Shown piece by piece: positions 1-40,254 of a stretch of 40,254 nt of DNA; the first letter of the stretch is position 1; every line of letters starts with the position of its first letter. The notes under the pieces are model-generated. The model worked only from the letters and a program-made list of their open reading frames with translations, did no database searches and was not told the DNA's origin. Position numbers and translations under genes: made by a program. Source of the DNA: a virus (taxonomy: Duplodnaviria; Caudoviricetes); IMG/VR virus record IMGVR_UViG_3300023261_000004, positions 1 to 40,254 of that record, one strand, 5' to 3'.

Positions 1-3000
1 ATCCGTTCCTGCGGTTCCAGACTGTCCCAGAGGCCCTGCACGTATTCACTGAACGCCGGCCCTAACTGCGCGTTCTGGATCTGCATCCGCCACAGCGCCT
101 GGGACCGGTGGTAGTCGATCTGGCCAGTCTCCCTATCGAACACCACCTCCATGACCGGGGGCGCGGGCCGTATCCCCTGCCGCTCCAGAAACTCCAGATG
201 CACCGAGCTCAGTTCATACAGGACCCCGATCCCCTGCTCTTCCAACGCCTCCAGTTCTTGGTCATCGTCGATCGCTTCGTCCGCGATCGCTTTCCATTTC
301 TTGACCAGCGGCCCCAGCACCCGCTTCATCGCCTTACGACTGAGCTTGCGCACGATCTCCGGGTAGCGCGGGCTGTAGATGTCCGCACCAAACACCTTCG
401 CGCCCTTCGACGGGTCGGCCAGTTCCCGGTCCCCCAGCAGCGTGATGTTGCCGAACCCCTCCAGCGCCTGCGCCACGCCGGTAATAGCCAGCGAGGGCAC
501 GGCGAAAAACCCGCCCAGCTTGCTCAGGACCTGGCGCAGTTTCCGTTCGGTGGTGTTGTGTTGCAGGATGAGCGGCGGGGGGCCCGCCGGCACGCCGGCA
601 TTGAGGCCCCAACTGGTCATGATCTCGGCAAACCGTCCCGGGCCGAGGTTGGGATACTCGCGCAGGATCGTCACCAGGCCCTCGACCATGCGGGCCGCGA
701 ACACCGCGTCGTCGGGCAGCCGAATGCCGGCTTCCTCCAACGCCTCCACGAGGCGCATCGCATCCGACGCCGCGGTCTGGTCGCTAGCGCGATACAGCCG
801 CAGGGCCGCGCGCGCCTTGCCGGTCGGCTCGAGCGGCTGCCCGAGTTCGTCTACGTCTTCGTCGGCGAAGGGGTCGACTTCTTCGGCGGCGGGATCAACG
901 CCCAGGCCTGGTCGTATTCCACCGCGTTCCGCGGCACCTTGCCCTCCAATTGCCGCGGGATCGTCGAGCGTAGCTCCGGGTCGAGCGGGAAGTCGGGCCC
1001 CTCCCCCATAGTGCAGGCTGCCAGGTAGCTCGCCTTCGTCAGGGGCCAGCCCTGCTCCAGCATCAGCCCAAGATGGTCGTCCCATCGGGCGCGTTCGTTC
1101 AATTCGCGCAAGGATCTTTCGTCGAGTGGCATCAATGTCTATTGTGCCAGACGTGAACTCCTTCCAGATCGCCTGCACGTCCGACAGCAGGACCTTCTCT
1201 GCCTGGTTTTTCACTCTTTTTTCGGCGGCCGGGAACAGCAGGCGCACCGCTTCCCAGGTCACCGACTGCACCTCGCGCGCGGTGATCGGCGGCAACCCCT
1301 GCGCACGCCGCTCGTCGGACAGTTGTTTCGCCAACCGGAAGTAGCCCTCGGCCACCACCACGTTCAGACCCATCAGCCCGTTCTCCTTGATCCCGGGCGG
1401 GGCGTCGAGCGTGTTGGCCACGAACCGGTCGGTGCCGGCCAGCGGCTGCATCACGAACGCGGCCGCGGCGTGCGTGTCGATCGTCACCACGTTGGCGTTC
1501 GACGGGTCCACCAGGTTCATGTAGAACGAGCGCACCTTGTGCTTGCCGCCGAGGCGCGCGTGGATGTTCAGGGCGCTGCCGTTGTCCAGCACCGCGATGG
1601 CATTAGCGATCTGCGGATAGGTGCCCCAGCCGACCCGCATGTCTTTCGTGCGCCCGCGCGCGTCCGGGTTCGTCTGCATCCGCTCTTGAAACCCGCCCTC
1701 GGGCGTAATGACGTGATACCAGCGCTGGTCCGCGTTCTGCTGCTCGTCCACCTCGCGCAGCATGATGGCCTTGCCGGGATAGCCGATCTCGGACCACGTC
1801 CGCCCCAGGTAGTTCGCCTCGGCGTAGGCGATCTTCTTCTCCTGCGTGGCGCGCGTGAACTCGAGGTTCTCCTTCTGTTTCTTGGTCAGCTTCTGCGTGC
1901 GCACCCGCTTGGCGAAGCTGTCGAACATCGCCTGGTCGAAGTCGGGGTTACTGAGCTCTAACTGCGCGAACAGGTCCGCCACCCGGAACGCCAGGTTCAT
2001 GTTCTTGAACCAGTCCATCTGCGGCGACAACGAGGCGATCAGGGCCGCGCCCTGGTTGATCGACAGGTTGTGCCGGTCGGCAATGCGCTGCGCGAGGTTG
2101 TGCCCGCCCTGATACCAGAGGCGGGCGCGCTCGCGGATCTCCGGTTCGAACAGGTCCCACAGCCACCGCAGGTTCTCGGTGCCGCGCTGGATGAAGTCCT
2201 CGATCACGCGCCGGTCGCTCCGGCGCTTCTCCTGCGGGGTGAGCATTTCGAACGAGCGCAGCTTGTCGGCGTAGCGCTTGATCGCTTTCGGATGCGAAGC
2301 CAGCAGCACCGGCAGCTGCGTCGTCAGCGGGTCGGTGGCCGGCTGCGCGTCCGGGCCGTCTGGCACGCGCGTCGAGATATACAGCACCCGGCCCACGAAC
2401 TTCAGCGGGGCCACGGCCAGGTTGTAGAGGTTCAGTTTGTAGGCTTTGGCCTTGGCCTTCTTCGGCTTCGGCGCCGGCTCCGCGCCGGGCTCGACGGGCT
2501 GGTCGAATTCCTCGAGTGCTTCGTCTCGCGCGATCCCGACCGCTTCGCGCGCGTCCTCGAGCAGCCCGGCCGGCAGGACCTGCTCGGCCTCGTCGCTGGC
2601 CAGCCAGTCCTCAAGCGAGCGCGCCACGTCGGTGTCGGCGCCGGTGTTCTGCGCCACGTCGCTGACGTTGCGCGTGGCCTGCGCAAACGCCTCCAGCACC
2701 CGCGTGGCGGCCTCGTCGCCGAGGCGCTCGCCGAGCTCGCGCTCCTGCTGCTCGGGGTCGAGGATCCGCCAGACAGCGTCCTCGACCGCCGCGGCCTGCG
2801 CTAGGCTGCGCTGCTGCTCCGCTGCTGCGGTTTCGGCTTCGGCCGGTGCGGTGACCGCTTCAGCGGCTTGGCCGGGTGGGATGGTGGTGTCTGGGGCGGG
2901 GCCGGGGCCAGGTGCAACTCCGGGCCCAGCAGCAACCGCCGCAGCCGCTCCCTGTCGAAGGGCATTCTGTGCCTCATCTTGGGGCACCTGACCCTCAAGC

Positions 3001-5081
3001 GTCAATGGCTGGGGTGTGCCCGCCTCGGGGGCGACTGCACTGGGTGTGCCAGTCGGGGCCGCCGCCGGGCGCGGGCGGGCCGCCGCCGCGATGCGCGGGT
3101 CGATCGTGCTGCGCACCACCAGCCCGTAGTCGGCGGCCAGGGCGCGGATGTCCTCGCCCATGTCGACCGCCGTCTGCCCGACCCCGGCCGCCCACAGTCG
3201 CGCCACCTTCACCGCGTCCCCGCGGGTGTAACGCCGGGTCAGCACCAGTTGGTCGGCAATGTCCTTGGTGACCGCCGCCAGCTGCTGCTGCGGCGTCTGC
3301 GGGGTTGGCTCCGCGCCCTCCACCGGGGCCCCGGCCTCGGCCGGCGTGTCCTCGAGGTTCTCGAGCTCGCCGATGGCCGCGCGCGCCTTGGCGAATTCGC
3401 GCGCCTCGATCCCGTTCCACTCCCGCGGGGCCACGCGCAGCATGTCCGCCAGCGCCGTGTTGTGCTCGGTCGGCGCCAGCATGGTGCCGTAGCGTTCGAT
3501 CGGGATCTGGAGGTCGACGCCAGCCTGCTTCGCTTTCTCGAGCGCGCCCGCTTCCCCGAGCACCGAGTCGGCCATGCCGTCCGGGTCAATGTCCTGCTTC
3601 TGCCAGTACTGGTCCCAGAGGTCGGTCGGGGCGTAGACGTAGGGGATGGAGCGCCCGGCCGCGCGCTTCAGAAAGGCCTGGGCGGCCTCGGGCGCGTCCT
3701 TGACCGTGTCGCTCGCCGCCGCCACGTCGCCAAACGTCGTGAAAAACTGCGTGATCGCCGGAGCGTCTTTGGCCTCGCGCACCCCGCGCACCGCCTGCGT
3801 GCCGGCCGGCAGCCCCACGACCAGCGACATGGACGTGGCCGCCTCGAGGTATTCGTTTTTGACTTCGGTGACGATCTCGGGGAGCGTGCGGTGCGTCGGC
3901 TCGTCCTCGGTGGCGGCCTTCCCGAGCTCTTCGGTGACGATGGCCACGATCCGCTGCAGCGCCTCCATCGGCGCCTCTTTCAAGAGCAGCGTCTGGGCAT
4001 ACACCTTGCCGGCGTGCGCGAGCGCGGCCCGCACCGTGCGCCGGCGCAGCACCTCCTTGATCGCCCGGCGCCCCACGGCCCCGACCATCTTCTGGCCGAC
4101 CGGGGTCTTCTTGAAGGCCTTCACGAGGATCCCGAGCTCGCCCACCTCGAGCGCCCCGTTGATCGCGCCACTGGCCAGGGCCGCGGCACGCGCGGCGTCC
4201 GGGTCGATCTTCCGGCCCTGCGCGTCTTCGAAGTCCTTGAATTCCTTCCAGGCTGCGCCGGCCTCCTGCGCGAACGTGTCCTCCCAGATCCCGACCCGGC
4301 CCGTGTAGCCGGCGGCGATCGAGCCGACCCCGCGGCCGACCATCAGCGGGTTGCCAATGGCCCCGCGCGCGAGCAAGGCGGCCCCGCCGCCGACCACGAA
4401 CCCCCCGGCGTAGCCCATCGCCGCGCGCCGGCCGCCGCTCGCCATGCCGAGGATGATGTTCGGCAGCACGCCAATGTTGCCGGTCACGGCCTTGCGCCAC
4501 CACTGGTTCCCCACGTCGAAGTCGCTGTTGACCGCCACTTCATTTTCCAGCTGGAGCATCGTCTGCTCTTCGGCGTCGGTCAGCGTGTAGCCCTGCGCCT
4601 CCCGCGCGCGCAGGATGTTCGCCTCCCGGCTGGCCATGGCCGTCCACCACGAACGGGCCGGCATAGTGGACAGCCACTCCCACATCCCCAAGCGCGGCAG
4701 TTCGCCGGGCTTGCCGCTGATGGCCGCGGCGTCCGGGTGCTCGGCCAGCCACGACGCCAGGCCGGGCGAGCCGGCCGTGATCGCGCTGTAGGGCACCAGC
4801 GCCTCGCGCGCCTGCTTCTCGAGCGCTGGCACCTGCTGGCTGTCGATCCAGGCCGGCGGCACGCCCAGCACCTTGCCAATGCCCTGCGCCTTGACGCGCG
4901 CGTCCCGGTCCTCGTCCTGCGCCTTGAGGCGCTGCGCCCGCATCCGGGCTTGCAACGGGTCGATCCAGTCGCCGCTGACGACCTCGTCGTAGGGGTTGAA
5001 CGGGCGCGGGGTCGCCGGCTTGACCGGGGTGGGCCCCGGCGGCAGGGCCTTGACCGCTTCGTCGTAGGGGTTCTGCGGCAT
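1..5081 (-). CDS. Giant internal virion (ejection) / polyvalent protein, >1690 aa, 3' end outside window; LPD22-like region (~3400-3700), DUF7178-like domain (~1080-2450), another conserved polyvalent-protein domain (~340-580)
   Basis: ATG at 5081 (MPQNPYDEAVK) overlaps the upstream TGA. Segments translated by hand are open, and its absence from the ORF track fits having no stop inside the window. Motifs: WYQGGHNLA..AALIASLSPQMDWFKN, KVRSFYMNL..VTIDTHA, AREVQSVTWEAVR, HNTTERKL..LGG..VPSLAIT..FGNITLLG..ADIYSPRYP. Third gene after the nozzle, as in podoviruses. Confidence 0.85.
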   Translation of the reverse strand, partial: MPQNPYDEAVKALPPGPTPVKPATPRPFNPYDEVVSGDWIDPLQARMRAQRLKAQDEDRDARVKAQGIGKVLGVPPAWIDSQQVPALEKQAREALVPYSAITAGSPGLASWLAEHPDAAAISGKPGELPRLGMWEWLSTMPARSWWTAMASREANILRAREAQGYTLTDAEEQTMLQLENEVAVNSDFDVGNQWWRKAVTGNIGVLPNIILGMASGGRRAAMGYAGGFVVGGGAALLARGAIGNPLMVGRGVGSIAAGYTGRVGIWEDTFAQEAGAAWKEFKDFEDAQGRKIDPDAARAAALASGAINGALEVGELGILVKAFKKTPVGQKMVGAVGRRAIKEVLRRRTVRAALAHAGKVYAQTLLLKEAPMEALQRIVAIVTEELGKAATEDEPTHRTLPEIVTEVKNEYLEAATSMSLVVGLPAGTQAVRGVREAKDAPAITQFFTTFGDVAAASDTVKDAPEAAQAFLKRAAGRSIPYVYAPTDLWDQYWQKQDIDPDGMADSVLGEAGALEKAKQAGVDLQIPIERYGTMLAPTEHNTALADMLRVAPREWNGIEAREFAKARAAIGELENLEDTPAEAGAPVEGAEPTPQTPQQQLAAVTKDIADQLVLTRRYTRGDAVKVARLWAAGVGQTAVDMGEDIRALAADYGLVVRSTIDPRIAAAARPRPAAAPTGTPSAVAPEAGTPQPLTLEGQVPQDEAQNALRQGAAAAVAAGPGVAPGPGPAPDTTIPPGQAAEAVTAPAEAETAAAEQQRSLAQAAAVEDAVWRILDPEQQERELGERLGDEAATRVLEAFAQATRNVSDVAQNTGADTDVARSLEDWLASDEAEQVLPAGLLEDAREAVGIARDEALEEFDQPVEPGAEPAPKPKKAKAKAYKLNLYNLAVAPLKFVGRVLYISTRVPDGPDAQPATDPLTTQLPVLLASHPKAIKRYADKLRSFEMLTPQEKRRSDRRVIEDFIQRGTENLRWLWDLFEPEIRERARLWYQGGHNLAQRIADRHNLSINQGAALIASLSPQMDWFKNMNLAFRVADLFAQLELSNPDFDQAMFDSFAKRVRTQKLTKKQKENLEFTRATQEKKIAYAEANYLGRTWSEIGYPGKAIMLREVDEQQNADQRWYHVITPEGGFQERMQTNPDARGRTKDMRVGWGTYPQIANAIAVLDNGSALNIHARLGGKHKVRSFYMNLVDPSNANVVTIDTHAAAAFVMQPLAGTDRFVANTLDAPPGIKENGLMGLNVVVAEGYFRLAKQLSDERRAQGLPPITAREVQSVTWEAVRLLFPAAEKRVKNQAEKVLLSDVQAIWKEFTSGTIDIDATRRKILARIERTRPMGRPSWADAGAGLAPDEGELPGSLHYGGGARLPARPGATLDDPAAIGGQGAAERGGIRPGLGVDPAAEEVDPFADEDVDELGQPLEPTGKARAALRLYRASDQTAASDAMRLVEALEEAGIRLPDDAVFAARMVEGLVTILREYPNLGPGRFAEIMTSWGLNAGVPAGPPPLILQHNTTERKLRQVLSKLGGFFAVPSLAITGVAQALEGFGNITLLGDRELADPSKGAKVFGADIYSPRYPEIVRKLSRKAMKRVLGPLVKKWKAIADEAIDDDQELEALEEQGIGVLYELSSVHLEFLERQGIRPAPPVMEVVFDRETGQIDYHRSQALWRMQIQNAQLGPAFSEYVQGLWDSLEPQER
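851..1132 (-). CDS. Small protein (93 aa) overprinted in the +1 frame inside the giant virion-protein gene; candidate immunity/antitoxin
   Basis: MPLDERSLRELNERARWDDHLGLMLEQGWPLTKASYLAAC...PLDPELRSTIPRQL. G/C-ending codons switch from the host frame to this frame across the interval, and the host frame becomes a Gly/Ala/Pro-rich linker. TGGCACAAT (extended -10-like) ends 8 nt before the ATG. Confidence 0.7.
   Translation of the reverse strand: MPLDERSLRELNERARWDDHLGLMLEQGWPLTKASYLAACTMGEGPDFPLDPELRSTIPRQLEGKVPRNAVEYDQAWALIPPPKKSTPSPTKT
2801..2965 (-). CDS. Second small overprinted ORF (54 aa, MPFDRERLRRLLLGPELHL...) inside the giant gene
   Basis: G/C-ending codons in this frame while the host frame has many A/T-ending codons; GAGG 6 nt before the ATG; TTGACG-N18-CAAGAT just upstream. 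Confidence 0.45.
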   Translation of the reverse strand: MPFDRERLRRLLLGPELHLAPAPPQTPPSHPAKPLKRSPHRPKPKPQQRSSSAA

Positions 5082-7819: not shown

Positions 7820-10123
7820 TCAGGCTCCCACTTCAATGAACGGCAGCAAGGCCAGGATCGTCAGCGGGGTCGGCTCGGTGTGCCGGATGATGAAGCGCCC
7901 TTCGTCGTCCCACGACGCCAGAATGCTCATCTCGAGCGACTGGCTCACCAGCACGCCGGGCGTCTCCCAGGTCTTCCGCTGCTGCTGCGTCAACGTCGCT
8001 TCGGTCTTGCCGGCCCAGAACCCCTGCACGCTCCGGTCGACGATCGCGGTGATGCCCTGGACGCGCTTCTTCTTCGCGCGCACGTTGCTGCCCTCCACGT
8101 CGAGGCTCAGGCTTTCGAACGTCGGGTAGGGGATCGGCAACCCGACATGCACCACGCTGGCGGCACTCGGCAGCGTGATCGCGTTCCCGCTCACCACGTA
8201 GCCGCCGGTCGTTTCGTGGCCGTTGGCCAGCACCACCCCGTCCGCCACGACCGCCACGCGCATCCCGTCCAGATGCGACAGGATGTCGATCGTGGTCGTC
8301 TCTGACCCGCTGTAGGTCACGCCGCTGTCGGCGAAGAGGCAGCGCGCGGCGAGGTTCGCCGCGGTGATCCCTTCGCGCTGGGCCAGGCGCTCGATGTAGC
8401 GCGTGTCGTCGCTGCCAACCGTGCGCCGGACCACCAGATACAGCACGTCCCCGGTTTCCTCGGGCAGCACGCAGATGTCTTCGATCACGTCCCCGTCGCC
8501 GGTCGTGTGCCGGTGCCACGCCCAGACGTTCTCGGTGGGAATGAACGTCAGCCCGAGCAGCACCCCGTCTGACCCGAGCGCCCACACGATCGAATGCGGG
8601 TCTTTCGAGTAGACCACCTTGATCACCGTGCGCGACTCAAACAGGTGTTGCGCCATGACCGTCAGGTCGGTCACCGACGTGCCCTCCTGCCCGCCGAGGT
8701 CGAACACCAGCACCATGTGCCCGCCGCGGTGGATATACACCGCGCTGTTGCCGACCGTCGTGGCCGGCGCGCGCGCGGCCCCGCCCTCGCCCTGGTTGCG
8801 CGCGTTGATCGCGTCCGGCCGGATCACCCCGTCCTGCCCGTCCCCGAACAGCACCACCGGCCCGCTCTCCGTCAGCAGCACCAGGTTGTCGAGCGGCACG
8901 AGCTCGCGCACCACGTTGTTGTCGTTCGACGCCAGCGTGAAACTGATCGCGTCGTCGTCTTGGATCGGCGAGCTCATCGTGAAGTTGGAGCGGAACCCGG
9001 TGCGACTCATCTCGACGCCGGCCGGGTTGTTGTCGGTATAGCCGAACACCCGGCGCTGCTGGTAGATCGTGCTCATCTCGGGCTTGTCATACGTGCCGGC
9101 AAACGGGTTGCGCTGCACGGGTGGGGTGCGCGTGAAGTCCGGCGCGAATCCCACGTCCTTGAAGTTCTCCTGCTCGGTCGCCTTGCCGATGTAACCGAAC
9201 GTGTTGTTCCCGAACGGGTCGAGGTAAACGTTGTATTCGACCGCGCCGGCCACCGCGGTCCACGTCAGCACGACCGGGTAGCTCTCGGTCGGGATCTGCG
9301 TGTTCGCCACCACGATCACGGCAGACGGCAGGCTCTCTTCGTAGGTGACCTGGTCCACGGCCGTCACGAGGTAGCGGAACGTGCGGTCCCCCGGCACCGG
9401 GTCGTGGCTCGCGTCACTGCCGGTCGGCGGCTGCGACGGTTCGCCCTCGAGAAACGAGTCGGTGGGGGGCGCGTCGATACTCGGGTCCGTCTCGATCGGC
9501 ACCAGCACCCAGCGCGGGGCGCTCGCCAAAGTGTTGGTGTTCTGGAGTTCCATCGGCGCGAACCCCGGGTGCGTGATCGTGATCAGCGCGCCGGTCTGGC
9601 TGAACCGCAGCGGGGCCGGGCTGTTGAACGCGCCAGACGGATACGGGGTCGGGATCTCGTAGATGGTGCCCGGCAGTGGATACCAACTGCTGTCGCTCGG
9701 GTCGGTCGGGTCGCTCCCGCTGTTGTCCGCGGTGGCGTAGTAGATCACGCCGCTGATGGTCACGAGGTCGCCCTGCAGGTAGCTGTCGCTGCCGCTCCAG
9801 GCCGGGACCGTGCTCTCGAGGATCTCGACCGGGGCGCCGTTCTGATGGAACCGGAAGTAGTAGTCCCCGGCCTCGATCAGCACGGCCTGGTCCGCGGCAC
9901 TGAACGTCCACGGGTAAATGAACACCAGGTTCTCGGGGTCGCCGGCCGTGGCGACGTATTGCGTGCCGGCACGGTTGCTGATCCCGCCGCTCTTGCGCAC
10001 AAAGAAATTGACCAGCGCCCGGCAGCCCTGCGTGTAGCGCGCCACGTCCGCGCGCGCGTGCAGGCTCGGGTCGAGCTCGCCACCACTGAAGGCGCGCTGG
10101 AACGCGTAGTCCGCCAGGCCCAT
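7820..10123 (-). CDS. Tail nozzle / tail tubular protein B (767 aa) with CBM5/12-like and Fn3-like insertions
   Basis: QRAFSGGELDPSLHARAD..Y..G..LVNF...GG..NRAGT N-terminus, YQQRRVFG, SRTG..NF, VWAWHRHTTG, YIERL, HLDG..V.VVADG, VHVGLP, P.PLTIL motifs. Confidence 0.9.
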   Translation of the reverse strand: MGLADYAFQRAFSGGELDPSLHARADVARYTQGCRALVNFFVRKSGGISNRAGTQYVATAGDPENLVFIYPWTFSAADQAVLIEAGDYYFRFHQNGAPVEILESTVPAWSGSDSYLQGDLVTISGVIYYATADNSGSDPTDPSDSSWYPLPGTIYEIPTPYPSGAFNSPAPLRFSQTGALITITHPGFAPMELQNTNTLASAPRWVLVPIETDPSIDAPPTDSFLEGEPSQPPTGSDASHDPVPGDRTFRYLVTAVDQVTYEESLPSAVIVVANTQIPTESYPVVLTWTAVAGAVEYNVYLDPFGNNTFGYIGKATEQENFKDVGFAPDFTRTPPVQRNPFAGTYDKPEMSTIYQQRRVFGYTDNNPAGVEMSRTGFRSNFTMSSPIQDDDAISFTLASNDNNVVRELVPLDNLVLLTESGPVVLFGDGQDGVIRPDAINARNQGEGGAARAPATTVGNSAVYIHRGGHMVLVFDLGGQEGTSVTDLTVMAQHLFESRTVIKVVYSKDPHSIVWALGSDGVLLGLTFIPTENVWAWHRHTTGDGDVIEDICVLPEETGDVLYLVVRRTVGSDDTRYIERLAQREGITAANLAARCLFADSGVTYSGSETTTIDILSHLDGMRVAVVADGVVLANGHETTGGYVVSGNAITLPSAASVVHVGLPIPYPTFESLSLDVEGSNVRAKKKRVQGITAIVDRSVQGFWAGKTEATLTQQQRKTWETPGVLVSQSLEMSILASWDDEGRFIIRHTEPTPLTILALLPFIEVGA

Positions 10124-15635: not shown

Positions 15636-16763
15636 CTACACGACCACATCTTCGGTGGAGAGGATCGCGTCGACCGTGCGGATCGGCGTGTCCCCAAAGA
15701 CCATCGTCGGCTTGCCGGCGACGTTGTCGAACGTCAGCCCGCCGCCTTCCATCACGTCCGACCGCACTTGCCGGCGCATGAAGCGCTTCACGGTGCGGTT
15801 CGCATACCAGACCCGGCGCCCGAGGCTGTTCGGGATCCGCTCTTCCGCGTCCCCCATCAGCGTCATCAGGTCGGCCGCGTCACTGACGCTCGAGAGGTTC
15901 GACACGTCGATGTTCGCGATCCGCACGATGTAACGGTAGTCCTTGACCGCGATCCCGGCCTTCCACATCCAGTGGTCCCGATACGCGCGCATCAACGCCC
16001 CCGTGACCCCGTTCGCGTTCTCCACCGTCTCGATCCCGAGGTCTTCGTGCGACAGGCCCGCGGTCGAGCCCTTCGGATAGATCCCGGTCACCGTCTCTTC
16101 GGACCACGCGATCAACCACATCGAGGTGTTGTCGGTCGAGCCCGTGCCGCCGGCCTTGATGATGTTGTCCCCGTTGCCGGCGGTGGTGTCCGAGTAGCGC
16201 ACCGCCAAGCCAATGAATTCCTCGGGCGCTGACGCGGTGCCGTAGATCACCGTCGCCTGCATTTCTTGGTTCATGGCCTCGAGAAACGCGCGCGCTTCCG
16301 AGAGGCGCAGCGCGCCCGGGTTCCCGCCCAGCTGCGCCAGCGCCACGTCCACCTGGCTGTAGGCCTCGAGCATTCCCGTTTGCTCGGTGATCTGGCCCGT
16401 CCGAGACTTGCTCGGCAGCACGCCCTGGTTGATCAGGCGCCAGTAGACGGTCGGCAGCGCCGTGCGGATCGTCGTGAGCTCGCCCGTGGTCAGGTTGCCT
16501 TCCTTCCACGTCATGTCGGCGAGCATCTCATTCGTTTGCGACAGCAGTTCGGCAATGTCCGCGATCTGCCCGTTCGGGTCGAGGCGCTTGGCCTGGTCCA
16601 CCAGCGTCAGGTTCGTGGTGGCCAGCACGGTCACCCCGACCACGGCCAGGCCGAGCAGGTGGAGCCAGGCCGGGCCGGTCGAGCTCGTGGCACTCGAGGC
16701 CGCGAGAGCGGGCGCGACGGCTGCCAGCAGCAGCACGCACGCCAGAGTAAAGCGTCGGATCAT
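15636..16763 (-). CDS. Major capsid protein (BPP-1 Bbp17-like, HK97 fold) with a ~44-aa hydrophobic N-terminal extension
   Basis: TLVDQAKRLDPNG.IA.IAELLSQTNEML.D..W.EGN..TG..T.IRT.LP...WR..NQG, GIYPKGS.AGL, DYRYIVRIANID; AAAGGA SD before ATG 16763; alternative GTG at 16634. Confidence 0.92.
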   Translation of the reverse strand: MIRRFTLACVLLLAAVAPALAASSATSSTGPAWLHLLGLAVVGVTVLATTNLTLVDQAKRLDPNGQIADIAELLSQTNEMLADMTWKEGNLTTGELTTIRTALPTVYWRLINQGVLPSKSRTGQITEQTGMLEAYSQVDVALAQLGGNPGALRLSEARAFLEAMNQEMQATVIYGTASAPEEFIGLAVRYSDTTAGNGDNIIKAGGTGSTDNTSMWLIAWSEETVTGIYPKGSTAGLSHEDLGIETVENANGVTGALMRAYRDHWMWKAGIAVKDYRYIVRIANIDVSNLSSVSDAADLMTLMGDAEERIPNSLGRRVWYANRTVKRFMRRQVRSDVMEGGGLTFDNVAGKPTMVFGDTPIRTVDAILSTEDVVV

Positions 16764-16804
16764 GGGAGCATCCTTTGGATGCGAGGCGTTCGCAGGGGTG
16801 CTGT

Positions 16805-17428
16805 TCACTCCGGGGTCGTCGGGAACAGCTTGGCGATGGTGCTCTTCGCTTCGGGCGCCGAGCCTCCAACCGTAAAGCCGCCGCGGCCGTCTTCGCCCAT
16901 CGCGCGCCCGATGCGCGCCATGAACAAGGCCAGCGGCGTGTAGTTCGCCAGCGCCAGGCGGGCCACGTCCTGATCGAACCGCTGCCGCTCCGGGCTGTCC
17001 GGCGGCAGGGCGAAGTCGAGCGCGCGCTTCATGTCCCGCTGCGCAGCGTCCCGCTGGCCCCCGCCCAGTTCGGCGTGGCTGTTCAATTCGGCCGTCAGCG
17101 CCTCGTGCGTGGCCTTGCGGTCCAAGATGATGTTCCCGACCTCGCCGTCGAGGTCCTCCTGGGTCCATCCGCTGGCCGTGGCCACTTGCGCGAGACGCGC
17201 CTGGTCTTGTGCCCCGATGTAGACCTTGGCCTCGTCGGGGATGGCAAACGTGTAGGTGGCAGGCACCGCCGCAGCCGGCGCCGGAGCGGCGGGCGCAGTC
17301 GGGGCCGGGGCCGCCGCCGCCGGCACGGCCGGCGCGACTGGTGCGACCGGCGCGGCCTCCGGGGCCGGCGTCGACGCAGGAGCAGCCACGGGGGCAGGCG
17401 CAGCAGGGGCAGTCGTCTCAGGTGTCAT
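16805..17428 (-). CDS. Capsid scaffolding protein (207 aa)
   Basis: Ala/Pro-rich N-terminus, P..YTF.IPD, F.ARIGRAMGED, C-terminal AKLF; directly upstream of the MCP. Confidence 0.8.
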   Translation of the reverse strand: MTPETTAPAAPAPVAAPASTPAPEAAPVAPVAPAVPAAAAPAPTAPAAPAPAAAVPATYTFAIPDEAKVYIGAQDQARLAQVATASGWTQEDLDGEVGNIILDRKATHEALTAELNSHAELGGGQRDAAQRDMKRALDFALPPDSPERQRFDQDVARLALANYTPLALFMARIGRAMGEDGRGGFTVGGSAPEAKSTIAKLFPTTPE

Positions 17429-23725: not shown

Positions 23726-24288
23726 CACGAGGTCGGCTCTGGCAGGCCCAGGTCCCCGCGCAGCGCGCGCGCCAGGACTGAGAGCTCTTCGGACAGGGGA
23801 GATTTCAGCTTGCCGGTGAGCTCGAGAATGGTGCGCCGAGCGTGCAGCTTCGACACCAGCTTGACCTTGAACCCGTCCTTGGTCCGCTCATAGGCTTCGA
23901 CGCTCGAGGCGATCGTTTCGGGCCAGTGCTGCGGGGGCAGTGGGTTGCCGTATTCGTCGAACAATTCGCGGATGTCGCTCTTGGCATCCTGGGCCAGCCG
24001 GCCCAGCGCCTCGGCCCCCGACATGCCCGCCGCTTCAAAGGCTTTCGTGACCTGGCGATGGACGTAAGCCCTCACGTGTGGTTTAGCTAGCGTGCAGCTA
24101 CCTTCGGTGCGGCAGGTATCGAATGAGGCGTCGGCATGGAGCGAGCGCCACGCACCCGCCCCGTTGAACCCATTGCTGAGATAGGCCACGCAGAACGCCT
24201 TTTCACGCAGGCTCAGGCCGTCCCCGTCGACGAGTTCCACGCGGGCCTGGCGGGGCTTGCGGGCGTATTTCCGTTTGGCCTTAGTCAT
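23725..24288 (-). CDS. terS: Terminase small subunit (187 aa)
   Basis: LSLREKAFCVAYLSNGFNG..A HTH, LAKPHVRAYV, A.SDIRELFDE.G, KVKLVSK..A...LEL.G (Terminase_2-like). Confidence 0.85.
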   Translation of the reverse strand: MTKAKRKYARKPRQARVELVDGDGLSLREKAFCVAYLSNGFNGAGAWRSLHADASFDTCRTEGSCTLAKPHVRAYVHRQVTKAFEAAGMSGAEALGRLAQDAKSDIRELFDEYGNPLPPQHWPETIASSVEAYERTKDGFKVKLVSKLHARRTILELTGKLKSPLSEELSVLARALRGDLGLPEPTS

Positions 24289-25012
24289 GGCACAGACACT
24301 CCATCAGGTCAGGGTGGTCGTCCAGGCCGACGAACAGGTCGCCCTGCGCGGCTAGCGCGGCGTAGCTGGGCGCGTCAGCACGGAAGGTGCCGCCGATCCG
24401 CCGCTCTTGCTCGATCCACCACCCGGCGAGGTCGGGCCGGTCACGAATGATCTGGCGACGTTTCCCCGTGCCTTTGAGAAAACAGAGGTCGCAGTTGCCT
24501 TCGTGCGGGCGTAGGTGGAGCGTGAAGGGTTGCGCGGCCCAGAAGGCCCACACGTCCGCGAGGGTCACACCGGCTTCAGCCAGGGGCACGTCGATGTCCC
24601 ACTCGTCGCTCGACGCACCGCGCAACCGGGCCACGCGACGAGGCTCATCCGCGCGCAGGCCCACCGCATTCGTCCAGTGCGCGTAGCCGTGGGCGCGCAT
24701 GTAGTCGCGCATCGGCTTGATCTTCAATTCCTGGGTGCAGAACCGCGCCACCGGGTTGGGCAGGAAGTGCTTATCGGTGATCAGTTGCGTGAAGTAACCC
24801 GGCCGATGCACGGTCACAATCTCGACGCCCCAGTGCGCAGCACAGTCGGCCACGAACGCATAGGTTTCGGCACGCTCCTGGCCCGTGTCGGCAAAGACGA
24901 CGTGAACATCCGGGCGCAGGCCCACGTCGAGCAGTTGCCGCAGCATATAGGCAGAGGTCAGACCCCCAGAAAACGACACCAGTGCCGGCCCGTCAATGGC
25001 GTAGGGGGTCAT
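24281..25012 (-). CDS. Phage PAPS-reductase-like (PP-loop) protein, lambda NinC-like (243 aa)
   Basis: VSFSGGLTSAYM, FADTGQE..ETY.F, RFCTQELK, GLRADEPRR, GNCDLCFLKG, C-terminal CLCHD. Confidence 0.85.
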   Translation of the reverse strand: MTPYAIDGPALVSFSGGLTSAYMLRQLLDVGLRPDVHVVFADTGQERAETYAFVADCAAHWGVEIVTVHRPGYFTQLITDKHFLPNPVARFCTQELKIKPMRDYMRAHGYAHWTNAVGLRADEPRRVARLRGASSDEWDIDVPLAEAGVTLADVWAFWAAQPFTLHLRPHEGNCDLCFLKGTGKRRQIIRDRPDLAGWWIEQERRIGGTFRADAPSYAALAAQGDLFVGLDDHPDLMECLCHD

Positions 25013-25016
25013 CCGC

Positions 25017-25517
25017 CTACTTCTTCTCGGCCTTCTCGGCCGCCGCCGCCGCAGCCTTCTCTTCCGCGGTCACGGGCACGCCGCTGACGATCCGCTGCAG
25101 CCGCAGGTTCGACGGGGGCGCCGGCGGCACGAACGTCGGCGGCACGACCGCGGCGTTACTGTGCGCCGTCTCGATGCCGCCAATGGTGGCCGTCAGGTCC
25201 AGCGACTGGCCCGCCACATTCAAGGCCGTGGGCACGGTGGCCGCGCACGTCTTCGTGTAGGCGTCCGCGGTGGTCGTGCAGGTCACCATCGTCAGCAGTG
25301 TGCCGACCGCGCTGCCGACCTGGTAGATCTTGTAGGGATACCCTTGGGCGGTGGCCACGTCGAACGGCGGCCGGGTACCGCCGGCTGGGGCGGGCGGGCC
25401 GCTGATCTCCCATTGCGCGCGCAAAGTTTGCGTCTGCGCCTGCGCGGTCGAGACACACCACCCGACCAGCGCGAGAACAACCAGAGCCACGCCCACCACC
25501 ACTTGTTGCACGCGCAT
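25017..25517 (-). CDS. Secreted Ig/Fn3-like protein (166 aa) with Sec signal peptide
   Basis: GGAGG SD; MRVQQVVVGVALVVLALVGWCVSTAQA|Q; Cys pair; ETAHSN..PPAPPSNLR Fn3-type end. Confidence 0.7.
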   Translation of the reverse strand: MRVQQVVVGVALVVLALVGWCVSTAQAQTQTLRAQWEISGPPAPAGGTRPPFDVATAQGYPYKIYQVGSAVGTLLTMVTCTTTADAYTKTCAATVPTALNVAGQSLDLTATIGGIETAHSNAAVVPPTFVPPAPPSNLRLQRIVSGVPVTAEEKAAAAAAEKAEKK

Positions 25518-25528
25518 ACCGCCTCCGT

Positions 25529-26077
25529 TCAGAGTGCACATTCCCAGCCGAGCTCGGCCGGGTTCGAATTCGCTGCCGTCGCCTTGAAGCCCAGAAGCTG
25601 GCTGCGGTTGTATAACAGAATGGCCAGGCCGGAGTCTTCCAGTGTGTGTTCTGGGTCCGTCAGGACGTTGCCATCGGCATCCCGCTCCGCGCCTGGCACC
25701 AGCGTCCCGACCAGACTCGAGGGCGCGGTCCCGTTGGTGAAGTAGCGCAGGCTCCCACTGGTCCAGTGCCCCACGCACGTCAGGCTCTCGTCGAGCGTGG
25801 CCGGCTCGCGCCCGCCCAGGTCCTCGGCCGTGAACCAGCGCGTGGTGTTGTCGATCACCATGGTGAACACCACACACGCCGCGGTCGGGTTACTCGTGCA
25901 GGGCGCCTGCGGGGTCTGCGGCGGGTGGTTGTGGTCAGGCGGCACCGGCGCGTCCGGCTCCTGCGTCCAGGCCGCTCGAGGCGCCGGCACCCACGGCACC
26001 GCCGGCCAGAGTAAGTCCGTCCAACTGACTAGCGCGAAGTAGCCGACCAGCACCGCCGCGCGCGCCTCGAGACTCAT
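25529..26077 (-). CDS. Membrane-anchored/secreted beta-sandwich protein (182 aa)
   Basis: Hydrophobic N-terminus, Pro linker, LRYFTNGTAPSSLVG motif. Confidence 0.65.
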   Translation of the reverse strand: MSLEARAAVLVGYFALVSWTDLLWPAVPWVPAPRAAWTQEPDAPVPPDHNHPPQTPQAPCTSNPTAACVVFTMVIDNTTRWFTAEDLGGREPATLDESLTCVGHWTSGSLRYFTNGTAPSSLVGTLVPGAERDADGNVLTDPEHTLEDSGLAILLYNRSQLLGFKATAANSNPAELGWECAL

Positions 26078-26083
26078 GGGGTC

Positions 26084-26164
26084 TCACCGCCGGCTGTCGT
26101 AGATGCCAGTGAGAATGATCACGACGACCACCACCAGAAAGAGCACACCGACAATGCCCAGCAT
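26084..26164 (-). CDS. 26-aa TM micropeptide (MLGIVGVLFLVVVVVIILTGIYDSRR)
   Basis: Fills the gap between two genes almost exactly; translated by hand. Confidence 0.55.
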   Translation of the reverse strand: MLGIVGVLFLVVVVVIILTGIYDSRR

Positions 26165-26165
26165 G

Positions 26166-26561
26166 TCACGGGCGCCGTCCTTGAATGGTGTAGGCGTTCG
26201 ACGGGCCGCTCTCGCAGCAGTTCCCGTCGAAGGCGAAGGCGTAGAGCGTGCGCCGGCCGGGCGTGTTCAGCAGATCGACCGCGCCCTGCGGCAGCGGGCT
26301 GTCGCACAGATGCGTGGTCGGAGTCTGCGTCACGCAGCTGTGCGGCGGGGGCATCGCCACGAACGGCCCGTTCGGGGTCGCACTGTCGATCCGCAGCCGC
26401 ATCGGCATGTTGATCGCCTTGTCCGCCGGCATGTCGTTCAGTTGAAACACGACGCGGTCGGTGGTGTAGACCGGGCCGCGCGTGATCGTAGTGCCGCGCA
26501 CCACCGCGCGTTGCGCCCCGGCCGGCGCGGCCAGCGCCAGGACAAGGATCAGGGTTCTCAT
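26166..26561 (-). CDS. Secreted Fn3-like protein (131 aa)
   Basis: MRTLILVLALAAPAGA|Q signal; Cys pairs; ESGPSN strand end; ATGA overlap with the MTase stop. Confidence 0.7.
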   Translation of the reverse strand: MRTLILVLALAAPAGAQRAVVRGTTITRGPVYTTDRVVFQLNDMPADKAINMPMRLRIDSATPNGPFVAMPPPHSCVTQTPTTHLCDSPLPQGAVDLLNTPGRRTLYAFAFDGNCCESGPSNAYTIQGRRP

Positions 26562-27853
26562 AGCGCGTCTACCTCTGCTATGCGCCGGCCGATCCAGGCC
26601 ATCACGGGCACCGCCATGCTGTTGCCCAGCGCCTTGTAGCGCGGCCCGTCGGCGGCCGCTTTCCCCCGATAGGGGATGAGCGTGTAGTCATCGGGGAACC
26701 CCTGGAGGCGCTCGCATTCTCGAGGGGTCAGCCGGCGCACCGCCATGGCGGTCGCGGCGACGTTCGACAGCCGGAAGTTGTGCGTGCCCTCGCGGGTGTA
26801 GGTGCGGGCTTGGTTCGCCGCCACCGGGTCGGCGAGCTCCGCGAAGGCCACGAGCGGTGCGCCGTCACCCAGGCCCGTGCTGCCAGACTCGGCCTTGAGC
26901 GGCGGCACCACGTCGGACGGCCCGTTGTCCTGCGCGCCGAGGGGATGGGTGACCGCTCCGCTGATGTCTGGGTCTTGGCGGTTGTGGAAGGCCACGGCGT
27001 GGCTCGAGCACTCGCGCAATGTGAACATCGGATCACCTGGGTTGCCCATGGCGCTCCCGTCTCTGGCGATGCCCCTGTCGCCACGACCCTTCGCCCCGTC
27101 AAGAATCGGCACGGGGATCAGCCCGCCGTCGCAGTCGAAGTCGGTCCCGAGGCCACCGCCCGCAGTGCTGCGGCTAGGGAGTGTGGGAGCTGTCATCGCC
27201 ACCAGCGCCTCGGCCTCTACGCGCTCGTTGCCCGTGCGACTGAATGGAGGGCCGCCGCCAACTGTGGGGGCAAGTCTTTGCCCCGCGTCTCGGCTCGGCG
27301 CAGGATCCCCGCGCAGGCTCGCATACTCAATGAGAACCGCTGCGGCACGTCGCCAGTCTCCAAGATGGCCGACAACGAACACGCGCTTCCGTCGCTGGGC
27401 CAGTCCGAAATACTGAGCGTCAAGAACGCGGTAGGCGAACCCATACCCGCACTCTGCCAGCCCTCGGAGCAAGGTGCCAAACGCCCGTCCTCCGTCGGCG
27501 GACAGGACACCGGGGACGTTCTCCCAGACCACCCATCGGGGCCGTAGTCGAAGAGCAATTGCAAGGTAGGTGAGCATGAGCGAACCACGCGGGTCATCCA
27601 AGCCCGCTCGCAGTCCCGCGACACTGAAGGACTGGCAGGGAGTTCCGCCGACGAGAACATCGACAGCTGCACCATCAAAGGTCCAGTCCTTGAACCGGGT
27701 CATGTCGCCCAAGTTGGGCACGGTTGGGTAGTAGTGCGCCAGCACCGCGCACGGGAACGGGTCCACCTCGCTGAACGCCACGGGCGTCCACCCCAGCGGG
27801 TCCCAGGCCACGGTGGCCGCCTCGATCCCGCTACACACGCTCAGGTAGCGCAT
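26558..27853 (-). CDS. C5-cytosine DNA methyltransferase (431 aa), M.EcoHK31I alpha-like
   Basis: SVCSGIEA (motif I variant), GGTPCQSFS (IV), WENVPG (VI), QRRKRVFVVG (VIII), RRLTPRECERLQGFPD (IX), YKALGNSMAVPV (X). Confidence 0.95.
   Translation of the reverse strand: MRYLSVCSGIEAATVAWDPLGWTPVAFSEVDPFPCAVLAHYYPTVPNLGDMTRFKDWTFDGAAVDVLVGGTPCQSFSVAGLRAGLDDPRGSLMLTYLAIALRLRPRWVVWENVPGVLSADGGRAFGTLLRGLAECGYGFAYRVLDAQYFGLAQRRKRVFVVGHLGDWRRAAAVLIEYASLRGDPAPSRDAGQRLAPTVGGGPPFSRTGNERVEAEALVAMTAPTLPSRSTAGGGLGTDFDCDGGLIPVPILDGAKGRGDRGIARDGSAMGNPGDPMFTLRECSSHAVAFHNRQDPDISGAVTHPLGAQDNGPSDVVPPLKAESGSTGLGDGAPLVAFAELADPVAANQARTYTREGTHNFRLSNVAATAMAVRRLTPRECERLQGFPDDYTLIPYRGKAAADGPRYKALGNSMAVPVMAWIGRRIAEVDAL
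27217..27678 (-). CDS. Overlapping alternative-frame polypeptide, M.EcoHK31I beta-like (~153 aa)
   Basis: SLSAILETGDVPQRFSLS.RACAGILRRAETRGK.LP..L..AL; third-position GC of the MTase frame drops in this interval. Confidence 0.7.
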   Translation of the reverse strand: MMVQLSMFSSAELPASPSVSRDCERAWMTRVVRSCSPTLQLLFDYGPDGWSGRTSPVSCPPTEDGRLAPCSEGWQSAGMGSPTAFLTLSISDWPSDGSACSLSAILETGDVPQRFSLSMRACAGILRRAETRGKDLPPQLAAALHSVARATSA

Positions 27854-27857
27854 ACGG

Positions 27858-28406
27858 TTACCAGGGAATGTCGTCCGCCGTCAGGTGGATCAACCCGTCG
27901 TCAGGCGGGGGCGGGGTCCAGACCACCGGGAACGCATTGAACACGTCTTGCGGCACAAAATACGCCGGCGGCCGGTCATTCGGGGTGCTCTCATACTCTT
28001 TGCGCACCCCGTGCCGGCCGATGATCCACCCGCACAAGTCGTAGCGCACCAGGTCATGCTGCACCACCAGCACCCACGGGTGATCGATCGTCGGCTTGGC
28101 CACGTCGTCGGGCCGGATGATCAGCCGCCCGTCGTGGTGCGGGGTCATGCGAACCTGCTCGACGCCAAGGTCTTGGTCGTCCTCCCAGGTCGTGCCGGCG
28201 CCGAACCAGTAGCGGTCCAGGCCTTTGGCGCACGCCATCTCGCCCAGGCACCCCTGAATATGGCGCTCCAAAGAGTCGAGGTCGTTCCCGTGCTTGCCGT
28301 TGTCGGCCTTCGCCGCGATCCCGGCGTCGTTGCGGATCTTCGCCACGAACCGCGCCAGTTGCACCTCGCGCGGGCGCAGAACCACGGGGATCCTCTGGGG
28401 CTTCAT
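27858..28406 (-). CDS. Conserved phage protein, possible PD-(D/E)XK-like nuclease (182 aa)
   Basis: G.LGE.A.AK...YW..D.DLG..QVR.T...GRLIIRP.D...VLV...GWI.G; ATGA coupling. Confidence 0.65.
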   Translation of the reverse strand: MKPQRIPVVLRPREVQLARFVAKIRNDAGIAAKADNGKHGNDLDSLERHIQGCLGEMACAKGLDRYWFGAGTTWEDDQDLGVEQVRMTPHHDGRLIIRPDDVAKPTIDHPWVLVVQHDLVRYDLCGWIIGRHGVRKEYESTPNDRPPAYFVPQDVFNAFPVVWTPPPPDDGLIHLTADDIPW

Positions 28407-29401
28407 GCCGGCACCGCCCGGTGCCAGAGCCTAGCGTCGTTTCCGAACACGCGCCAGCCCGCCGCCGGCTTGCGCCCGAACAGTTCCACCCGCGCGCCCT
28501 CGGGCCAGTGTTTGTCCAGATACTGCCGGAAGAAGTCCGGCTTGGCCGAATGCTCGGTCTTGCGCTCGACGTAGACCGACCGCGGTAGTTCGCGCGGCAC
28601 GTCCGGCGTGCAGCTGCCACGCGTGCAGATCAGGAACAGTTCCACCGACCCCTCGGTGTAGAACCCGCCGGCGCCACGCACCTTGTCCCAGACCAGCAGC
28701 GCCTTGTACACGAACCCCCAGGCGCGCAGGACATCGTAGGGGCCAGGGTCGTCGTAGAGCAGCGGAGCGGGCACCCAGAGCCCCAGAACGGCATCCGGGG
28801 TCGTGTGCGCCTTCACCGGCAGTTCGCACAACTGGTCGATCGACATGACCGGGTAGTGCTTGCTCGAGCTCGAGCCACTCGGCTGCGCCTGGCCGTAGGT
28901 CCAAGGCGGGTCCGCGAGCCACACCCGATACTGCCCCTCCAGCGCGGCCTGGCCCTGGACGGTGGCCGCGCGCTTGCGGACCCGCATCTCTTCGCGCACC
29001 TCGCGCTGACCCCAGCCCTCGGCCACCGCTTGGTCGATCACCTCATCTATAACTATCGACGGTTGCGCGCTGAGCGGGTAGTAGAGGCTGATGTCCACGT
29101 CCGCCCGGCGCTGTGCCACCGGCACCCGCCCCAATTGCCGCAAGTTGATCAACGTCTGCCGCGCAAACCCGGTCAGTTCCTGCGCCTGCTCGATGCGGTC
29201 GGCCCAGTCCGTCCGGCCATCCCCATAGAGCAACCAGTCCGCGAGCCACCAGCCCGCGCGCAGATAGGACCGCCGCGCGTATTCACCGACCGCCTGGTGT
29301 TCGTCGAAGGTCGGCTTGCCCGTCACCCGCAGCCGGGTGGCCGACAGCACGTAGGGACCGATCGTGATCGGCGCGTCGTCGAACGACAGTTTGCGCCCCA
29401 C
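28403..29401 (-). CDS. MT-A70 family N6-adenine methyltransferase with extra N-terminal helical domain (332 aa)
   Basis: YRVWLADPPW, HYPVMS, L.LW, WGF.YK..LVWDK, EHSAKP, ELFGR, GW.VFGN. Confidence 0.9.
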   Translation of the reverse strand: MGRKLSFDDAPITIGPYVLSATRLRVTGKPTFDEHQAVGEYARRSYLRAGWWLADWLLYGDGRTDWADRIEQAQELTGFARQTLINLRQLGRVPVAQRRADVDISLYYPLSAQPSIVIDEVIDQAVAEGWGQREVREEMRVRKRAATVQGQAALEGQYRVWLADPPWTYGQAQPSGSSSSKHYPVMSIDQLCELPVKAHTTPDAVLGLWVPAPLLYDDPGPYDVLRAWGFVYKALLVWDKVRGAGGFYTEGSVELFLICTRGSCTPDVPRELPRSVYVERKTEHSAKPDFFRQYLDKHWPEGARVELFGRKPAAGWRVFGNDARLWHRAVPA

Positions 29402-39504: not shown

Positions 39505-40254
39505 TTATCCTTCCTCGCCCGGATCGCGCGGCAGCTGCAACGGCCCCGGCGCCTCGAGGGCCGCAATGATCGCGTTATAGTCCTTGCGCTTGATCTCAGC
39601 GCTGCCGCTCACGGCATAGCGCGCCCCGAGCCACACGGCCACCTCGTCGACCGGCCGGCGCATCCGCTTGGCGGTGTCCCACAGTTTCCGGGCCGCGGGT
39701 TTGGTGATCGGTTCATCGCCGTCCGGCATGTCGGTGGCCGGGGTCTGCGCCGGCGGGGCCGGCTTGGGCGCGGCCTGGCGCGAGGGCGCGCGCTGCTCGT
39801 TCCACATCGGCGGGTCGTCCTTCCGGCGCCACACCTTCTGCTCCTTGCCGTCCCGGCTCTGCACCGTCACGCACACGCCTAGCTCGCGCGTCATGCGCTC
39901 GCGCCAGTCGTAGTCCCACAGTTCCAGCCACACCCCGATCCGCTTGCAGCACCGGCGCAGGGCGCTGGCAACGGTGCTCTCGACGGCGTCCCCGAAGGTC
40001 TGGTCCGGGTTGCTCTCGTGGTATTCCTGCTGCCCCCAGGCCGCGGCCACCGGCGCCCCGCCGATGTGTAGGACGTAGGGGCAGACAATGCAGCGCTTCT
40101 GCCCGTCGAACGCCGGCCGTCCGATCGGCACCAGCGCCCAGCCGAACCGGCCGAACGCTCTATTGAGCAGCCGGGTGTATTCGGTGTGCGCCAAAAACAT
40201 GACGGGGTGGCGCTGCGGCAAGAACCTGATGCGCCCGACCGGCGGCGGCTCCGA
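39505..40254 (-). CDS. Rad52/Sak-type ssDNA annealing protein, Mgm101-like; 5' end outside window
   Basis: Frame is open to the window edge; EYTRLLNRAFGRFGWALVP, A.GQQEY, SALRRCCKRIGVWLELWD, KVWRRKD. Confidence 0.8.
   Translation of the reverse strand, partial: SEPPPVGRIRFLPQRHPVMFLAHTEYTRLLNRAFGRFGWALVPIGRPAFDGQKRCIVCPYVLHIGGAPVAAAWGQQEYHESNPDQTFGDAVESTVASALRRCCKRIGVWLELWDYDWRERMTRELGVCVTVQSRDGKEQKVWRRKDDPPMWNEQRAPSRQAAPKPAPPAQTPATDMPDGDEPITKPAARKLWDTAKRMRRPVDEVAVWLGARYAVSGSAEIKRKDYNAIIAALEAPGPLQLPRDPGEEG

Follow-up and report, generated by a model that had tools for sequence, protein, structure and literature searches.

The window, that is, the whole 40,254-nucleotide stretch of caudovirus DNA analyzed here, carries portal, capsid, tail and T7 gp14-family genes, followed by a 699-aa gene and then by a giant gene. 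From this gene position we infer that the giant protein is packaged and injected. Its frame had been described in a sequence-only reading as staying open, and it runs uninterrupted until it exits the window. In locus L001, which is near-identical to the window, the frame is open for at least 1,045 further codons past the QSxTW motif. Hence, the giant protein is larger than ~2,300 aa. The features of the giant gene are as follows (all on the minus strand).

3..5081: giant polyvalent (ejection-type) gene, an open frame whose 3' end lies beyond the window
1098..2339: DUF7178 domain, giant-protein residues ~915-1328 (Pfam, 71.5 bits), with a predicted HhH-GPD glycosylase-like fold
1141..1149: candidate extended -10 element TGGCACAAT, which ends 8 nt before the ATG of the nested gene and is identical in locus L002
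851..1132: nested +1-frame gene of 93 aa (ATG at 1132, TAG at 851-853), from a small acidic helical family without a name
855..1070: Gly/Ala/Pro linker of the host frame over the nested gene, stop-free and weakly constrained in sequence
276..572: PBECR5 domain of the host frame at residues 1504-1602 (53.6 bits), downstream of DUF7178

DUF7178 and PBECR5 occur in one chain within a virion gene block, as is characteristic of a phage polyvalent protein. The giant protein thus resembles the polyvalent proteins of the main text of Iyer et al. (2017; PMC5512222), which are likewise multi-domain, encoded in the virion gene block and equipped with a PBECR domain. Its DUF7178-bearing relatives also carry LPD22, LPD38, ART-PolyVal, InPase, PBECR5 and portal domains. 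This varied company fits the expectation for a mobile module, and DUF7178 is indeed spread over many polyvalent architectures. In P0038, a phage portal domain is fused to DUF7178, which supports a virion location of the domain.

Elsewhere in the window, a 510-aa ORF (15636-17428, minus strand) contains the major capsid domain at residues 197-510. Its long 5' part overlaps a 207-aa ORF (16805-17428), and the true capsid start is probably internal to the 510-aa ORF. A gene for an Mgm101-family single-strand annealing protein lies at 39508-40221 (minus strand), and a cluster of PAPS-reductase-domain, C5-cytosine methylase and MT-A70 methylase genes at 24281-29401 (minus strand).

A conserved gene in the +1 frame of a giant-protein linker

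The host frame of the giant gene has a GC3 of ~0.9 over most of its length, which drops to ~0.5 at 1180-880. Here, a 93-aa ORF with G/C-ending codon bias had been noticed in the +1 frame, and the codon statistics agree: over the nested ORF, GC3 is 0.85 in the +1 frame vs. 0.49 in the host frame, and the codon log-likelihood is +0.21 vs. -0.22. Among 628 control windows of 93 codons from 17 other window genes, the +1-frame log-likelihood averages -0.58 (sd 0.25, maximum 0.46) and the +1 frame is open in 6%. Locus L002, whose domain is 62% identical to that of the window, retains the nested ORF, which is also 62% identical. The nested protein follows the family motif D-P..L..L...G.PLTRENYL.LAY....P..L.AE.E..LP. 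An assembly artefact is ruled out because the same layout is seen again in numerous independent contigs as well as in genomes of isolates. The stretch 851-1132 encodes a conserved 93-aa protein and a stop-free linker of the giant protein in two frames. The nested ORF had been placed at the very end of the DUF7178 domain. The domain does lie directly upstream, but the ~20 initial codons of the ORF overlap its last helix and its P-x-W motif as well as the linker.

We then consider how the nested frame might be expressed. Two sequencing runs with a small share of matching material yielded nothing but short, scattered pieces, none of them displayed over 851-1132, and are uninformative on expression. 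The TGGCACAAT element proposed 8 nt ahead of the ATG is present at 1141-1149, and TGGCACAATAGAC is kept unchanged between L002 and the window. Of the 10 loci in the clade of the window, 4 have TGnTAnnnT at the homologous position, which speaks for the near-leaderless internal promoter that had been postulated; against it stand a sigma-70 promoter scan with 0 sites and the C at position -12 in the window. Across the whole family, the extended -10 is weaker: it is found at the homologous site in 7/59 loci, and in at most 1/22 loci without a downstream copy. Within 22 nt of an ATG it is found in 5/72 loci vs. 10/1,198 control ATGs. A near-leaderless internal promoter is plausible for the window's clade, with TGGCACAAT as a candidate element only.

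The start codon itself bears on another explanation, in which the +1 ORF would be a C-terminal extension of the domain made by programmed frameshifting. All 110 nested copies found (see below) lie in the +1 frame and start inside the domain end, as such an extension would. However, an open ATG is retained at one site in 7/10 loci of the window's clade despite a varying host residue (D, H or N), GAT is chosen in 8/11 GC-rich loci vs. 68/236 control Asp codons, and free-standing and opposite-strand copies exist. Frameshifting is hence scarcely credible.

A frame-specific dN/dS comparison, which the sequence-only reading had suggested, reveals purifying selection in the small frame. Pooled over non-overlapping pairs of nested loci, dN/dS of the small frame is 0.19 (13 pairs, 634 codons) or 0.33 (20 pairs, 989 codons), whereas the host frame over the bases shared with the small gene yields 1.76 (13 pairs) and 1.64 (20 pairs). 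Free-standing copies read in the host frame behave much like nested ones (1.58 and 1.65), and the enzyme domain ranges from 0.06 to 0.11. The window/L002 pair alone has 11, 14 and 12 differences at the three codon positions over 54 codons and exhibits no position bias. The host frame is stop-free across the small gene in 70/92 loci vs. 11.3 expected from synonymous resampling, and in 25/39 low-GC3 loci vs. 0.6 expected; for the window alone, the chance of a stop-free host frame is 0.31. Together, the low dN/dS of the small frame and the excess of stop-free host frames show that the linker is selected for openness and the small protein for its sequence.

The term "overprinted" in the sense of a de novo origin does not hold, since the family also occurs free-standing, in another frame or on the opposite strand. 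With 40 downstream and 4 opposite-strand copies among 206 loci and a weakly constrained host frame, de novo overprinting is ruled out. What is found is an independent small gene through which the giant frame continues in some loci. On the domain tree (midpoint-rooted, with weak deep support), nested and downstream layouts interchange 7 times vs. a mean of 26 in shuffled trees.

A small-protein family linked to DUF7178

For the comparison, alignment A1 retrieved 582 viral and 453 metagenomic DUF7178 loci, of which the best 80 each were used, together with all of the 45 genomic ones. With L001, L002 and the window these are 208 sequences, 206 of which could be anchored on QSxTW; 4 are near-copies of the window. 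A seed profile was built from 23 unique copies, taken only from loci in which a stop closes the host frame where the domain ends. Run against 18,660 segments, it recovers the ORF of the window at 25.1 bits (E 6.6e-6, Z fixed at 10,000) as well as 99 copies nested in +1 across the 206 loci. After iteration, the family is nested in the +1 frame in 110 loci, downstream in 40, where it lies next to the domain or overlaps its end, on the opposite strand upstream in 4 and absent from 52, one of which is incomplete; absence was judged within the ~2.5 kb fetched around each locus. Nested copies in the +2 frame number 0 in the 206 loci. At 90% identity, the 159 clusters divide into 79 nested, 35 downstream, 3 opposite-strand and 42 without the family. 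The predicted +1 or adjacent ORF thus follows the domain in its homologues, with the small gene nested or directly downstream in 150/206 loci.

The linkage holds in the reverse direction as well. A search with the small protein alone retrieves 127 loci, and the best 80 all (80/80) adjoin DUF7178, with 69 nested, 10 downstream and 1 divergent; these 80 represent 60 unique sequences, many of them close kin, and the overlap of the query with the domain biases the result. Linkage nevertheless outlasts the loss of overlap (L243, L279, L042, L134): L243 has a divergent copy beside DUF7178 and L279 a copy 515 nt away from it. A small gene just upstream of DUF7178 on the opposite strand (L042, L058, L134, L135, L243) represents a third layout.

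This distribution matters for the possibility of an independent passenger gene whose linkage to DUF7178 would stem solely from the overlap of its 5' end and promoter with the end of the domain. A passenger would fit the position of the first ~20 codons and of the candidate promoter within the last domain helix, as well as the many unrelated small genes nested in such giant genes. Yet the small gene stays by DUF7178 without any overlap when it lies upstream on the opposite strand (4/206 and L243), and adjacency is kept across a gap or in the +2 frame (L279, L286, L162, L178). A mere passenger is thus very unlikely.

The family is large, with 2,461 clusters (50% identity, E<=0.001). The model of the small protein is confident and helical (pLDDT 87.5), and its core has a mean net charge of -4.1, with negative values in 89% of the 105 members. 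The same 105 members match no common family in Pfam or PHROG (one stray match each), and NCBIfam and PADLOC return nothing meaningful for the 6 members submitted. In structural searches, the best PDB match reaches Z 3.0 and no viral match appears at E<=0.001, which does not prove a new fold; the best Atlas match (score 0.78) is unnamed. P0041, P0042, P0043 and P0122 contain the small domain in two tandem copies. Among cultured carriers are Jannaschia seohaensis DSM 25227, Pseudofulvimonas gallinarii DSM 21944, Bradyrhizobium strains and phage LS06-2018-MD07. In the GenBank record of the latter, the nested member (26.7 bits) is present but unannotated, and in the cultured phage OP947163 annotation missed a nested member inside a single CDS. 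The module is a real, widespread and unannotated dual-coding unit.

Predicted fold and putative active site of the DUF7178 domain

The domain upstream of the small gene had been taken for an enzyme, and its predicted structure (pLDDT 92) points the same way. In a wide structural search of 48,161 chains, ranks 1-19 all belong to HhH-GPD-type glycosylases or to Qng1, a related hydrolase. The best match is OGG2 (3n0u; Z 8.7, rmsd 3.7, 182 residues aligned), followed by Qng1 (Z 8.6 and 8.1) and AGOG (Z 7.2), with the first unrelated row at Z 5.0. A second structural comparison agrees, and OGG2, Qng1 and AGOG score within 1.5 Z units of one another. These fold scores are moderate and near the noise range of the tool for helical models. 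Foldseek against the PDB gives no match at E<=0.001, profile searches with the domain give none at E<=10, and a sequence search of the PDB gives none apart from one chance myosin-fusion row. The viral library and the Atlas return only uncharacterized or DUF7178 proteins. We found no literature on DUF7178.

The residues that might form an active site lie in one segment.

1470..1538, minus strand: putative active-site segment HKVRSF...TIDTH, with Lys at 1536-1538, Asp at 1476-1478 and His at 1470-1472

In domain numbering these are K268, D288 and H290. They are invariant in alignments of 20 and 105 sequences. The pattern used to search for the loci included K268 but neither D288 nor H290. The catalytic pair of hOGG1, Lys249 and Asp268, is 19 residues apart (as given in PMC3397491), and the Lys-Asp spacing in DUF7178 is 20. 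Judged by spacing and context, K268 and D288 may be equivalent to this pair and have a putative catalytic role. The DUF7178 domain is thus predicted, from its model, to be an HhH-GPD-type DNA glycosylase/lyase. It shares with OGG2 (3n0u), AGOG (1xqp), EndoIII and Qng1/DUF2419 a predicted helical fold (Z 6-8.7) and has the invariant Lys and an Asp-x-His with hOGG1-like spacing. In contrast to these glycosylases, it lacks a sequence-level match and has a dedicated partner gene, and it contains insertions and is roughly double OGG2 in size. In the OGG2 family, 8-oxoG is read by the carboxyl group of a C-terminal lysine that is strictly conserved, according to the same source (PMC3397491). Membership in this family is rejected because the window domain is internal and has no free C-terminal lysine.

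A glycosylase fold would also suit a benign enzyme that repairs or processes bases of phage DNA, or a Qng1-like nucleoside hydrolase, with the small protein setting its timing. The near-equal scores of OGG2, Qng1 and AGOG are in keeping with this, as are the domain's solitary occurrence in some phages and the C5 methylase, MT-A70 methylase and PAPS-reductase-domain protein encoded in the window. A phage with such a cluster may carry modified bases of its own making, a point of possible relevance for the substrate of the glycosylase. However, DUF7178 keeps company with the conflict domains PBECR5, ART-PolyVal, InPase and a SAM-lyase-like domain, and repair glycosylases are not known to be accompanied by a dedicated partner gene next to their own. 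A benign role is hence distinctly unlikely.

A putative inhibitor inside the gene of its proposed effector

We favor as the best reading, and consider somewhat probable, that the giant protein injects a predicted glycosylase effector and that the acidic small protein is its cognate putative inhibitor. This reading is suggested by the two-way linkage, the MuF-like layout, the acidic core and the unrelated +1 ORFs at the same site. The layout of a C-terminal domain followed by a small downstream gene, classic for toxin/immunity pairs, occurs in 35/159 clusters. In at least three loci that lack the family (L184, L186, L195), an unrelated codon-biased +1 ORF occupies the same place. In such a scheme, the small acidic protein would be made from its own start codon, probably from the near-leaderless internal promoter, and would bind the domain during synthesis of the giant protein (and in a lysogen), so that the DNA of the producer is spared. 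Ejection would free the enzyme to excise bases from DNA in the new cell, be it that of the host or of a competing element, and expression of the small gene in this cell would shut the enzyme off again. Owing to nesting, domain and inhibitor could travel as one in-frame cassette to any place inside a polyvalent gene.

The toxin/immunity logic of the sequence-only reading survives in the classic layout of these 35/159 clusters, but not as an obligate pair: 42/159 clusters keep the putative catalytic residues without a partner in the DNA fetched. K268, D288 and H290 are retained in 36/36 partner-less representatives, and about one quarter of the intact DUF7178 domains have no small-family partner nearby. 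In the cultured phage CRP-738, the domain is at the C-terminus and no family member lies within 9 kb on each side. No residue distinguishes domains with a partner from those without. The net charge of the domain averages ~0 across relatives, hence charge complementarity with the acidic small protein is not general. A helper that can be dispensed with explains partner-less domains with catalytic residues more easily. The small protein might thus be a positive partner, i.e., a chaperone, a packaging adaptor or an activating subunit, for which two-way linkage is equally expected. Its acidic core, the toxin/immunity-like downstream layout and the loci with unrelated ORFs at the same site argue against such a partner, which we regard as fairly unlikely.

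Adjacency alone need not mean inhibition, given that other small genes are nested in giant genes. Among 142 representatives, codon-biased nested ORFs number 46 in the +1 frame and 0 in the +2 frame, and 27/46 belong to the DUF7178-linked family. In 16/36 partner-less representatives, the protein continues from DUF7178 into an in-frame domain, and 3/10 of the scanned post-DUF7178 domains match the SAM-lyase family at E 1e-4 to 0.15, i.e., below the cut-off. A second recurrent nested family follows the in-frame domain behind DUF7178 in partner-less loci, and a further +1 candidate is present in the window.

L120:3623-4342, L173:3659-4378, L027:3626-4345: S-adenosylmethionine lyase-like in-frame domain in partner-less loci (weak matches)
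L028:4197-4355, L100:4158-4448, L167:3229-3522: second recurrent nested +1 family, PLPDGHP.KGG.I.FGG
2801-2977 (window, minus strand): second candidate in the +1 frame, MRHRMPFDRERLRRLL... (58 aa), within a further giant-gene linker of low GC3

The N-terminus, the stop position and an upstream TTGACG-containing stretch of the 58-aa candidate are conserved in L002, and PHROG returns no match for it. In P0082, a motif similar to PLPDGHP.KGG.I.FGG is fused to the DUF7178-linked small family.

Among known systems, the lambda Rz/Rz1 spanins are the closest in architecture. There, a small gene lies inside its partner gene in the +1 frame, and relatives have embedded, overlapped and separated versions. 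The DUF7178 module likewise has a whole small gene in the +1 frame of its partner and a layout that varies among relatives. Unlike Rz/Rz1, it pairs a soluble acidic helical protein with an enzyme domain rather than forming a membrane/lipoprotein lysis pair, and its host gene encodes a multi-domain protein of >2,300 aa. In temperate phages, a small (<150 aa) putative immunity ORF follows 89.4% of 191 muf toxin genes, as reported in the main text of Jamet et al. (2017; PMC5576092), in which the term "glycosylase" is absent. The DUF7178 module resembles MuF toxins in that an enzymatic domain of the virion module is accompanied by a small ORF, most clearly in the 35/159 clusters. It differs in that a MuF domain is absent from the window protein and from 13 scanned DUF7178-bearing relatives, and in that DUF7178 mostly sits in the interior of a giant ejection-type protein, with the small gene embedded in the +1 frame and a predicted glycosylase as the effector. 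The Rehh DNase toxin is blocked by small acidic, mutually unrelated immunity proteins (bioRxiv 10.64898/2026.09.22.753552), which recalls the small acidic protein beside a predicted DNA-attacking effector. Rehh, however, is an HNH-type enzyme of bacterial secretion systems for which the abstract does not mention nesting, and we claim no homology. By analogy, the module would work like a MuF-type toxin/immunity pair and be built like Rz/Rz1, as a member of neither. The main text of PMC5512222 contains neither "overlap" nor "glycosylase". Nested partner genes in polyvalent or ejection proteins were not found in the literature searched, largely that outside subscription journals; the supplements of PMC5512222 could list the domain under another name.

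As a wider proposal, which we advance tentatively and rate as somewhat less probable than even, giant ejection genes could be compact toxin/immunity arrays in which each injected effector is able to carry a +1 inhibitor in the following linker. DUF7178 would then be a new class of virion-delivered DNA glycosylase effectors, the family of 2,461 clusters would be inhibitors of HhH-fold glycosylases hidden from annotation, and the PLPDGHP.KGG.I.FGG family after the SAM-lyase-like domain would be another inhibitor. A Pfam DUF frequent among uncultured phages gains a predicted enzymatic fold and is tied to a large unnamed small-protein family, which annotation misses when it is nested. If the inhibitor reading is true, the DNA glycosylase is a weapon that phages inject, and dual coding is their means of self-protection. 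The odd Gly/Arg/Ser/Ala-rich linkers of polyvalent proteins would then be explained, and the family would be a source of protein inhibitors for glycosylases related to OGG1, MUTYH and NTHL1.
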